From an uncultured Microthrixaceae bacterium (GTDB lineage: Bacteria > Actinomycetota > Acidimicrobiia > Acidimicrobiales > VFJN01), in assembly GCA_963717755.1 (NCBI GenBank), contig CAVQWY010000002.1:826013-890012 (forward strand): a stretch of DNA of 64,000 nt. Reading direction: 5' to 3'. Below are positions 27,230 to 28,829 of the stretch, piece after piece. Made by a program: the position numbers and the translations under genes. The stretch's first letter is position 1, and each line of letters begins with the position of its first letter. The notes beneath the pieces are model-generated. The model saw only the letters and a list, made by a program, of their open reading frames with translations. It had not been told where the DNA came from and searched no databases.

Positions 27230-28129
27230 TCAGCCAGAGAGGATCGACGTGATGAGCGCGGTGGTGCGTTCGAGATCACCGAACGGCGCCACGTTGAGGT
27301 CGGTCACGCCGGCGTCGGCGTACAGCGCGATGCCCCTGCGCACGGTGTCCTCGTCGCCGACGAGCGCGATGTCGCCGGGGCCGGCCGCTCCCTCGCGGTC
27401 GAGCATGGCTCGATACGACGGCAGCGTGCCGTAGATGGCGAACACGTTCTCGGCCTCGACGCGAGCCGCGTCGGGATCGTCGGTGACCGACACCGGGACG
27501 CCGGCGATCACCATCGGCGCCGGTCGGCCGGCCTCCTCGGCCGCCTTGGAGATCGTCGGCGCGATGTGGTCGGCGATCGTGTGCGGCCCGGTCATCCAGG
27601 TGGCGGTGCCGTCGGTGAGCCGCCCGGCGAGCTTGAGCATCACCGGGCCCAGCGCGGCGACGACCACCTTCGGCGGCGTGGTGCCCATGCGCTCGAGCGG
27701 GACGAACGTGTTGTTCACGCGGTACACCTCGCCCGAGTGGTCCACGCCGCCCTGGTCGAGGATCGGCATGAGCACCTCGAGGTACTCGCGCATGTGGCGG
27801 GCCGGCTTCTCGAACGAGAGCCCGAGCATCCCTTCGATCACGATCTGGTGGCTGAGGCCGATGCCGAGGATGAAGCTCCCACCGGTGGCGGCCTGGGTGG
27901 TCATCGCCTGCTGCGCCATGTAGAGGGGATGGCGGCTGTAGGTGGGCACCACGAACGTGCCGAGCGTGATGTCGGGAACCTCCCGCCCGGCGACGGCGCA
28001 CGCGGTCATGCCGTCGAGGCCGAAGATGTTGCTGAACCAAGCCGAGCTGTAGCCGATGGCCTTGGCCTGCCGGACGCTGTCCACCGCGGCGTCGATCGTG
28101 CCGCCGCCACCACCGATCCCGATGCGCAT
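27230..28129 (-). CDS. LLM-class probable F420-dependent oxidoreductase (TIGR03564-like)
   Basis: VVPTYSRHP, LGIGLSHQ, AALGPVML, YGTLPSYRAMLDREG. Confidence 0.85.
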   Translation of the reverse strand: MRIGIGGGGGTIDAAVDSVRQAKAIGYSSAWFSNIFGLDGMTACAVAGREVPDITLGTFVVPTYSRHPLYMAQQAMTTQAATGGSFILGIGLSHQIVIEGMLGLSFEKPARHMREYLEVLMPILDQGGVDHSGEVYRVNNTFVPLERMGTTPPKVVVAALGPVMLKLAGRLTDGTATWMTGPHTIADHIAPTISKAAEEAGRPAPMVIAGVPVSVTDDPDAARVEAENVFAIYGTLPSYRAMLDREGAAGPGDIALVGDEDTVRRGIALYADAGVTDLNVAPFGDLERTTALITSILSG

Positions 28130-28206: not shown

Positions 28207-28737
28207 TCAAGCGCGGCGGACGGCCACTCGCTCGACGATGAGGACGCGGCCGTCCGTCGGGGGTGGGGGCCTGAACGCGCGGCGGGGGACGGTCGGTCCG
28301 GCGTGGAAGCGGTGGCGGTTGGCGTGGCCCAGGTCGGCCCAGCGGCGCGCGGCGCTGCGCTTGAGGAGCAGGTCCGCCCGGATCAAGCGGCTACCGGGGT
28401 GGAGCAGGCGTCGGAGCAGCGGCTCGGTGATGACCCACGGAGGGTTGGCGACGACCCGGAACGGGCGACGCGGGAGGCGCAGGTCGGTCGCATCCGCTTG
28501 CACCACCCGCACGTCGTCGCCGAAGCGGCGGCGCAGAGCCGCCGCGCGGCCCGGATGGAGCTCGATCGCGATCACGCGCGCGCCGAGCTCCAGCAAGGGC
28601 GCGGTGAGGGCGCCGTCGCCGGCGCCGATGTCGAGCACGAGGTCGCCCCGGGCCACGCCCGACGCGGCGACGAGCCGCTCAGCCCAGGAACGGTCGAGTC
28701 GGTACCAGCCCCAGGCCGGAGGACGTCCCCCGGCCAC
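28207..28737 (-). CDS. Short Erm-family 23S rRNA adenine N6-methyltransferase, Erm(37)-like
   Basis: AWGWYRL, VLDIGAGDGALT, IELHP, RLPRRPFRVVANPP, PRRAFRPPP; 176 aa, lacking the C-terminal domain as in mycobacterial Erm(37). Confidence 0.85.
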   Translation of the reverse strand: MAGGRPPAWGWYRLDRSWAERLVAASGVARGDLVLDIGAGDGALTAPLLELGARVIAIELHPGRAAALRRRFGDDVRVVQADATDLRLPRRPFRVVANPPWVITEPLLRRLLHPGSRLIRADLLLKRSAARRWADLGHANRHRFHAGPTVPRRAFRPPPPTDGRVLIVERVAVRRA

Positions 28738-28768
28738 GAAGGCGCACCACCAGCATCACCATCGGCAT
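28679..28768 (-). CDS. Putative leader peptide of the erm-like gene (MPMVMLVVRLRGRGTSSGLGLVPTRPFLG)
   Basis: ATG 28768 with GGGAGG 8 nt upstream; RLR motif overlapping the erm GTG. Confidence 0.55.
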   Translation of the reverse strand: MPMVMLVVRLRGRGTSSGLGLVPTRPFLG

Positions 28769-28829
28769 CTGAGCAGCCTCCCGCCGGCACCGGCGGGAAG
28801 CCAGCGAGTTCCCGGTCTAGACAGGGCTC

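Follow-up and report, generated by a model that had tools for sequence, protein, structure and literature searches.

Inducible macrolide resistance in actinobacteria is due chiefly to inducible Erm methylases. In the 64,000-nucleotide stretch of an uncultured Microthrixaceae genome analyzed here (contig CAVQWY010000002.1; hereafter the window, meaning the whole stretch), a short gene for an Erm(37)/Erm(41)-like 23S rRNA adenine methyltransferase of 176 aa (erm; positions 28207–28737, minus strand) is preceded and overlapped by a small open reading frame (ORF) in another frame. We are confident that this ORF is a conserved, translated leader of the macrolide arrest type and that it overlaps an erm gene initiated at a GTG codon. 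The leader peptide, the N-terminus of Erm and the start signal, i.e., three overlapping codes, share about 40 nt. An earlier note on this DNA had proposed an antibiotic-triggered +1 frameshift from the leader into erm and had named re-initiation at the GTG as the alternative; the comparative data favor the latter.

The leader ORF comprises 29 codons on the minus strand (28768–28679). It starts with MPMVMLVVRLRGRG, encodes the peptide MPMVMLVVRLRGRGTSSGLGLVPTRPFLG, and ends with a TGA (28681–28679) inside erm. The initiating Met and the hydrophobic prefix PMVMLVV are followed by R-L-R-G-R, which holds two overlapping motifs of the +x+ type, R9-L10-R11 and R11-G12-R13 (28730–28744, minus strand). 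The codons are CGC for R9 (28744–28742), CTT for L10 (28741–28739), CGT for R11 (28738–28736), GGC for G12, and CGG for R13. R11 is common to both motifs, and its CGT supplies the first two bases of the erm start: the GTG (28735–28737, minus strand) joins bases 2 and 3 of codon 11 to the base that opens codon 12, and it is thus read in +1 relative to the leader. As a TGA six codons upstream closes the erm frame, the GTG at 28737 is the first possible start. No Shine-Dalgarno (SD)-like 4-mer was found at positions −18 to −5 of this codon. Upstream of the leader, on the same strand, GGGAGG (28782–28777) is separated by a gap of 8 nt from the ATG at 28768. The earlier note had described these elements (GGGAGG-N8-ATG, MPMVMLVV-R-L-R, a GTG in the +1 frame without obvious SD) correctly throughout, and its statement that the Leu codon is rare at this GC content also holds. 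The CTT of Leu10 (28739–28741, minus strand), which is followed by a C and had been proposed as the +1 slip site, represents 1.3% of the Leu codons in 1096 long ORFs with high GC content at third codon positions (genome GC content, 71.3%). tRNA-Leu(GAG) is the sole CTT-reading tRNA in the genome. CGT accounts for 6.5% of the Arg codons in the same genome.

The two-frame arrangement was compared across 86 loci, comprising the window, five relatives, and 80 loci from a scan of one genome per species (the best 80 of 170 relatives). The leader design, consisting of a Met, 5–9 hydrophobic residues, R-x-R, and an overlapping erm start, was present in 82 of the 86 loci, within the Actinomycetota, and such a recurrence is far beyond chance. 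The erm GTG was part of a CGTG at 81 of the 86 loci. For detailed counts, a set of 72 loci was defined by ATG-started ORFs whose CGT Arg codon carries the erm GTG, and CGTG was found in all of them (72/72). The 14 loci outside this set include one ATG leader missed through a partial match, eight GTG-started leaders, one TGTG variant, and four loci without anything comparable, of which one is truncated and three are distant. In 41 genomes of relatives, Erm-like genes with 50–84% identity occurred at eight places in seven genomes; at all eight places an upstream ORF overlaps the erm start in the same frame relation. Furthermore, 401 genomes from the order of a Pseudonocardiaceae metagenome-assembled genome (MAG; G041) gave 17 usable loci, including long-form Erm genes of 257–277 aa, and the design was present in 17 of 17; this draw contained three duplicates of loci already counted, and one locus from an unpublished genome was left out. 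Cultured carriers belong to harmless genera, namely Kribbella, Cellulosimicrobium, Luedemannella, Catelliglobosispora, Occultella, Ruania, Myceligenerans, and Desertimonas, so that the design is directly testable. Many Acidimicrobiia MAGs, Microthrixaceae included, are further carriers. In the closest relative (G022), two near-identical erm loci including the leader were seen (L002, at a contig end, and L014), which could be a duplication or an assembly split. A loose genome scan for other genes with the same leader design returned 21 hits, none of them family-like by eye, with a filter that overlooked the erm locus itself.

The junction is also covered by two environmental contigs of relatives from soil or sediment DNA, each single and of low depth. 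One of them (contig X4, record 15) spans 28598–28769 without a gap. The other (contig X2, record 9) spans 28616–28769, and its sole change is a frame-keeping 3-nt deletion at 28751 that removes one leader codon. An indel fusing the two frames, for which the earlier note had suggested a check, was thus not seen at the junction in either contig. One of the two contigs carries 65 other letters in place of the sequence between 28769 and 28823, i.e., the similarity begins exactly at the leader ATG.

Within the 72 loci, the leader is conserved at the amino acid level with varied codons. With positions numbered from the invariant CGT Arg as 0, the consensus reads ..[V/T]-M-V-R-R-[V/G/A]-R. The hydrophobic prefix is composed mainly of V (27%), M (25%), T (13%), and F (10%), and no R or K precedes position −2, except for one residue at −7. 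Position −4 is V or T, −3 is M or V, and −2 is V or R, while R occupies −1 in 57% of the loci. At +1 only V (30 loci), G (26), and A (16) were found. Position +2 is R in 88% of the loci, compared to 3–25% R/K at +3 to +9. The CGT Arg is part of an R/K-x-R/K motif in 70 of 72 loci. The register is R(CGT)-x-R at 63 loci and R-x-R(CGT) at 17, and both registers occur together at ten, including the window with its R-L-R-G-R. PMC8298421 describes R/K-x-R/K as the arrest motif for macrolides and ketolides: on ErmDL the ribosome halts when the P site holds the middle residue and the A site the second Arg, and the arrest also depends on the N-terminal context. The reading of the leader as a macrolide-sensing arrest peptide, made initially from the window alone, was sound, and the leader ORF, its motif, and the overlap with an SD-less GTG are conserved far beyond this genome.

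At the junction of the 72 loci, Arg is encoded without exception by the rare CGT, and G is the first base of every following codon, which indicates that selection acts on both the Arg and the out-of-frame GTG within the same three bases. In 66 of 72 loci, a stop codon within the leader interrupts the erm frame, in most cases 3–4 codons ahead of the GTG. None of the 72 loci has an SD-like 4-mer (GGAG, GAGG, AGGA, GGGA, or AAGG) at −18 to −5 of the GTG. The invariance of the GTG favors initiation over frameshifting, because a frameshift needs no start codon.

Classical translational attenuation, i.e., a start site freed by a hairpin switch, had already been considered a poor fit, and this was borne out. 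Depending on the register, the GTG is offset from the first base of the predicted P-site codon by 2 nt in the upstream or 4 nt in the downstream direction. It would therefore be buried inside the stalled ribosome, in the E/P or A-site region, and could not be freed for another ribosome. Single-sequence folds often place the CGUG in a stem, and the mean pairing peaks near the GTG. However, RNAalifold predicted no pairs (0) on 70 sequences, and the pairing of CGUG was 0.801 compared to 0.786 with the downstream sequence shuffled (higher in 39 of 72 loci, p = 0.19). As the pairing equals that of the shuffled control, it is a composition effect, and a conserved attenuator hairpin was ruled out by these two results. 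The 221-nt fold of the region in the window is not exceptional (z = −1.6). A local 9-bp hairpin starts from the last G of the GTG (GGCCGGGGG-ACGU-CCUCCGGCC; 28714–28735, minus strand; −19.7 kcal/mol) and is not conserved as a structure. With the GTG expected in the stalled ribosome, no SD at any of the 72 loci, and no conserved alternative structure, classical attenuation was rejected.

Upstream of the leader, most of the 72 loci share elements that resemble a promoter rather than a ribosome binding site (RBS). Relative to the leader ATG, A is dominant at −43/−42 and T/G at −37 to −34, and the family-level motif is gAAATTCGgTTGg, an AT-rich element followed after 3 nt by a −35-like TTG. The window has its counterpart at 28799–28813 (minus strand), with a degenerate AT-rich element, 3 nt, and a −35-like hexamer (GGGAAC-TCG-CTGGCT). 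NANNNT ends 6 nt before the leader ATG in 35 of 72 loci and 7 nt before it in 22, where one locus may count at both spacings; other spacings total eight. The full TANNNT was found at spacing 6 in 16 loci and at spacing 7 in 18. These −10-like hexamers include TAGAGT, TACGGT, TAGCGT, and CACAGT, and the GTG-started leaders carry the same pattern. With a −10-like hexamer at 6–7 nt from the start codon, the layout is that of a leaderless transcript, and the leader is probably translated from a leaderless mRNA. Mycobacteria are known to have leaderless short ORFs with a regulatory role (bioRxiv 10.1101/834739). In the description of WhiB7 sites given in PMC10727445, an AT-rich sequence precedes the −35 element by 3 bp, and from the motifs, which are clear at the family level, we infer a WhiB7-type promoter upstream of the leader. 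The genome encodes six WhiB-like proteins, one of which, outside the window (G000:C1:451846-452022, L107), has the hallmarks of WhiB7, namely an EPW motif (..EPWGVWGG..) and a C-terminal RGRP AT-hook (..RRRGRPPK..).

The −10-like hexamer of the window, GAGGCT (28775–28780, minus strand), lies 6 nt before the leader ATG and overlaps the GGGAGG at 28782–28777. An inverted repeat (28773–28805) with a 12-bp core (28802–28791/28786–28775; −26.8 kcal/mol as RNA) takes up the presumed promoter spacer, from the −35-like to the −10-like element. The promoter block is kept in the two closest relatives, while the spacer differs; both the repeat and the "SD in a hairpin" are missing at the 84%-identical locus of G022. 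The 10-bp hairpin around the leader SD, as it had originally been described, is thus real as an inverted repeat, but it has 12 bp, and its interpretation is doubtful. Since the GGGAGG region overlaps the −10-like hexamer and the hairpin is not conserved, GGGAGG is probably promoter DNA of a leaderless transcript and not an SD within an RNA hairpin. The repeat itself could be the operator of a lineage-specific repressor, or due to chance.

The frameshift originally suggested would proceed from the arrested ribosome: tRNA-Leu slips by +1 from CUU to UUC, the GUG is read as Val, and a leader–Erm fusion is produced. In the window this chemistry is plausible. CUU_C is present with the rare CTT, and by base-pairing rules tRNA-Leu(GAG) would pair as well or better on UUC. 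R-L-R brings the CUU into the P site, and +x+ arrest is described as being relieved by small residues in the A site, such as Val (both PMC8298421). The 9-bp hairpin begins 4 nt past the CUU, and there is a precedent for regulatory frameshifting induced by a drug within an erm leader (Gupta 2013, as cited in PMC5009743). A conserved shift site, however, is absent. A comparison of the upstream regions of Erm(37)-like genes, a check that had been suggested, confirmed conservation of R-x-R and CGTG, but not of CTT. The slip-capable codon occurs in three of 72 loci (L001, L017, L018), which belong to the clade of the window and have near-identical leaders, whereas the sister lineages with R-L-R (L003, L020, L030) use CTC. 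Among all 17 loci in the R-x-R(CGT) register, the P-site codon is CGC in four, CTT in three, CTC in three, TTC in two, CGT in two, and GTC, CAC, and CAT in one each. In the R(CGT)-x-R register, found in 63 of 72 loci, the P-site codon is GTC, GGC, or GCC, which cannot re-pair in the +1 frame. Moreover, a prfB-style internal SD stimulator is present in none of the 72 loci, and slippage accounts neither for the invariant GTG nor for the CGT codon or the G that opens the codon after it. A slip into the erm frame could therefore at most be a clade-specific extra, and even as such it is very unlikely.

Other explanations accept the GTG as the start but assign a different role to the leader. A ribosome stalled at the 5′ end could shield the leaderless mRNA from decay that depends on the 5′ end and keep the region unfolded for de novo initiation at the GTG after the stalled ribosome has left. 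The arrest site is 24–35 nt from the presumed 5′ end, the GTG region is GC-rich and mostly paired by prediction, and macrolide-induced mRNA stabilization accompanies erm induction in other systems described in PMC5118997 and PMC9178857. We nevertheless consider this unlikely, as it does not explain the placement of the GTG in the arrest codon to the single nucleotide (81 of 86 loci), drug-free passing ribosomes would expose the GTG equally, and there is no specific structure beyond composition. Alternatively, the overlapping ORF could be a drug-independent decoy that keeps Erm translation low, because ribosomes starting at the 5′ ATG pass over the GTG, with induction being wholly transcriptional via WhiB7. 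The WhiB7-type promoter and the WhiB7 homologue in the genome are consistent with this, as is the report that erm(41) is a direct WhiB7 target in Mycobacterium abscessus (PMC10727445); in addition, the two starts are 19–40 nt apart and hence mutually exclusive. A decoy needs no conserved peptide, though, yet positions −4 to +2 are strongly conserved and +x+ is present in 70 of 72 loci, which makes this explanation distinctly improbable. That the "leader" is not translated at all, and that promoter or processing signals yield a leaderless erm mRNA starting at the GTG (by an internal −10 element or an RNase E cut before the C of CGTG), is hardly credible. Many loci do have an ATGGTG-like sequence (GATGGT) about 6 nt before the GTG, but those with ATGTTC, ATGCTC, or ACGGTC lack this putative −10 element; the conservation at the amino acid level, the start codon at a fixed distance from the upstream −10 element, and the frame-keeping indel of a relative also argue against it. 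Mycobacterial RNase E cuts 5′ of the cytidine in RR|CNU (PMC10641625), and CGU fits the CNU part. As two purines before CGTG were found in none of the 72 loci, RNase E processing was rejected.

The reading that we prefer, albeit tentatively, is an arrest-coupled re-initiation in which R-x-R acts as a drug-conditional stop and the ribosome restarts in place, in the +1 frame, on the SD-less GTG, across the Actinomycetota. Two layers would be involved. In the first, the WhiB7-type promoter would fire and the transcript would begin at the leader ATG or 1 nt before it. In the second, a macrolide-bound ribosome would arrest at R-x-R after about ten leader codons. The arrest would serve as a drug-dependent pseudo-stop, at which the short peptidyl-tRNA drops off or a rescue factor splits the ribosome. 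The ribosome or the 30S subunit, still on the mRNA, could then re-initiate on the GTG a few nt away, so that Erm would be made by initiation and not by frameshifting. Without an SD, the GTG would not be found by free ribosomes, while the vacated ribosome or 30S subunit would sit within a few nt of it. In the absence of the drug, the leader would be read through and terminated 41–116 nt downstream in nearly all loci, leaving erm nearly silent. WhiB7 responds to many translation stresses. The WhiB7 layer would thus be general, and the leader layer would confine the costly methylation of ribosomes to macrolides. As a whole, the chain of WhiB7-type promoter, leaderless arrest leader, drug-induced arrest, and re-initiation at the GTG is a serious possibility, if still short of probable. 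Re-initiation of this kind would probably also apply to the mycobacterial erm(37) and erm(41), whose profile N-terminus aligns with that of the GTG-started relatives: when proteins of relatives are begun at this GTG, their alignment to the Erm37 profile starts from its position 1. Macrolides promote the drop-off of short peptidyl-tRNAs, and drop-off followed by re-initiation is reported in vitro and in cells (PMC8934632).

Several points weigh against this proposal. The arrest anatomy and its conservation are observed, but the transcription start site, the arrest, the drop-off, and the re-initiation are steps that we infer. Complexes stalled at +x+ are described as stable in vitro (PMC8298421), which disfavors a fast drop-off, and the drop-off and re-initiation published in PMC8934632 is a same-frame restart from the A-site tRNA and does not involve an initiator tRNA in another frame. 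The offset of the GTG from the predicted P site is not constant but varies with the register (−2 or +4 nt). A ribosome that still carries the drug might stall again on the Arg-rich Erm N-termini of relatives. At one locus, in a Micromonosporaceae MAG (L052, ~1470–1500), the GTG is kept although TGT (Cys) replaces the CGT Arg (..FVMVR-C-VRG); it is the only such locus. On the side of the promoter, the AT-rich box of the window is weak and degenerate and its −10-like hexamer GAGGCT is poor. Its GGGAGG could be a true SD at N8 spacing if transcription begins further upstream. In addition, two loci with long-form Erm of 257 aa (L124 and L125, upstream of positions 1444 and 1465) have a short leader, MIMVRRAR.., with a GGAGG 7 nt before it; these leaders are SD-led judging by this element, and leaderlessness is consequently not universal.

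In coupled genes with overlapping stop and start codons (ATGA, TGATG), the ribosome restarts a few nt away without an SD. In contrast to such termination–reinitiation coupling, all loci of the erm family but one have no stop at the site, and a drug-dependent arrest motif would have to substitute for it. A literal instance of the analogy is provided by a Pseudonocardiaceae MAG (L095:1416-1470, the same locus as L109), in which a 9-codon leader, MFVIVMARV, ends with a TGA 5 nt past the erm GTG; this is a genuine stop/start overlap where other loci carry R-x-R.

R-x-R leaders ahead of erm genes are already well known. Leaders of ErmDL-type attenuation are likewise short ORFs ahead of erm with a hydrophobic N-terminal part followed by R-x-R, and the leader of the window even contains R-L-R, on which ErmDL arrests while Leu occupies the P site and Arg the A site (PMC8298421). 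The difference lies in what follows. In the ErmDL and ErmCL systems, the RBS of erm is downstream, in a hairpin that is opened by the stalled ribosome, whereas here the erm start is within the arrest motif and would be buried in the stalled ribosome, erm has no SD (0/72), conserved alternative hairpins are absent, and the leader is apparently leaderless. The putative leader of erm(55)/erm(46) on mycobacterial and Rhodococcus plasmids, MGITSVAVIRIRRF-stop, is of the same style, with Met, hydrophobic residues, and R-I-R-R (preprint 10.64898/2026.07.08.737060). According to that preprint, the ORF stops short of erm, and predicted stem-loops as well as a separate RBS with an ATG come after it; its authors required leaders not to overlap with erm, so that an overlapping design would go unreported. 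Ketolide-induced frameshifting in the ermC leader (Gupta et al. 2013) is similar in that a drug alters the decoding of a leader and erm is turned on. In the account given in PMC5009743, however, the shifted ribosome only unfolds the mRNA for normal initiation of ermC and does not translate into erm; unlike there, the shift site is not conserved in the present family, while the start codon is. The promoters of the WhiB7 regulon also have an AT-rich box 3 nt before the −35 element, with erm(41) among the targets (PMC10727445). In contrast to those mycobacterial promoters, the window is from the Acidimicrobiia (Microthrixaceae), and its own box is degenerate.

An erm start codon inside the arrest motif, or a leaderless erm leader, was not described in the full-text literature searched, which did not cover key older papers and supplements, so that an earlier description is possible. 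Ribosome-protected short ORFs of M. abscessus are given in Dataset S2 of PMC4974804, among which an erm41 uORF might be present. The coupling mechanism is possibly new. If true, a nascent-peptide sensor would turn on a gene in a new way, by arrest-coupled re-initiation. Induction of erm in mycobacteria is ascribed in the preprint 10.64898/2026.07.08.737060 to WhiB7-driven transcription alone, and the upstream regions are called poorly characterized. With a conserved arrest-type leader fused to the start of erm, a general stress promoter would be supplemented by a translational checkpoint that is specific to macrolides. As the geometry excludes the textbook hairpin switch, the system could be used to ask what becomes of a drug-arrested ribosome and whether it is able to restart.

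The erm product of the window is, by its profile scores, a relative of Erm(37) and Erm(41) and none of the named alleles. It scored 169.6 bits with NCBIfam Erm41 and 164.4 bits with Erm37, both below the allele cut-offs of 350 bits, and 56.9 bits with Pfam RrnaAD, and it aligns to positions 9–172 of the 173 positions of the Erm41 profile. The protein consists of the RrnaAD domain alone, without a C-terminal RNA-binding domain, as in short A2058 methyltransferases. None of ten proteins of relatives passed the 350-bit NCBIfam cut-off, and no match above the Erm41 cut-off was found among the 401 genomes from the order of G041; the 14 control genomes did not include mycobacteria. The Erm N-termini of many relatives (e.g., L111, L108, and L119) are Arg-rich in the first 5–8 residues, with R-x-R-like runs (..RSRRAWGW..), whereas that of the window (VAGGRPPAWGW) has no Arg-rich run. 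A second RrnaAD-family gene in the genome (G000:C2:398285-398671, L015/L098), with an open frame of 290 aa and 40% identity over residues 15–134, most likely encodes the housekeeping KsgA/RsmA.

No mobile-element genes were seen adjoining erm. A luciferase-like monooxygenase gene is located downstream of it (27230–28129, minus strand). On the other side, a putative cyclase gene (Pfam Cyclase; 28830 onward, plus strand) is divergent from erm, and its start is 61 nt from the leader ATG.

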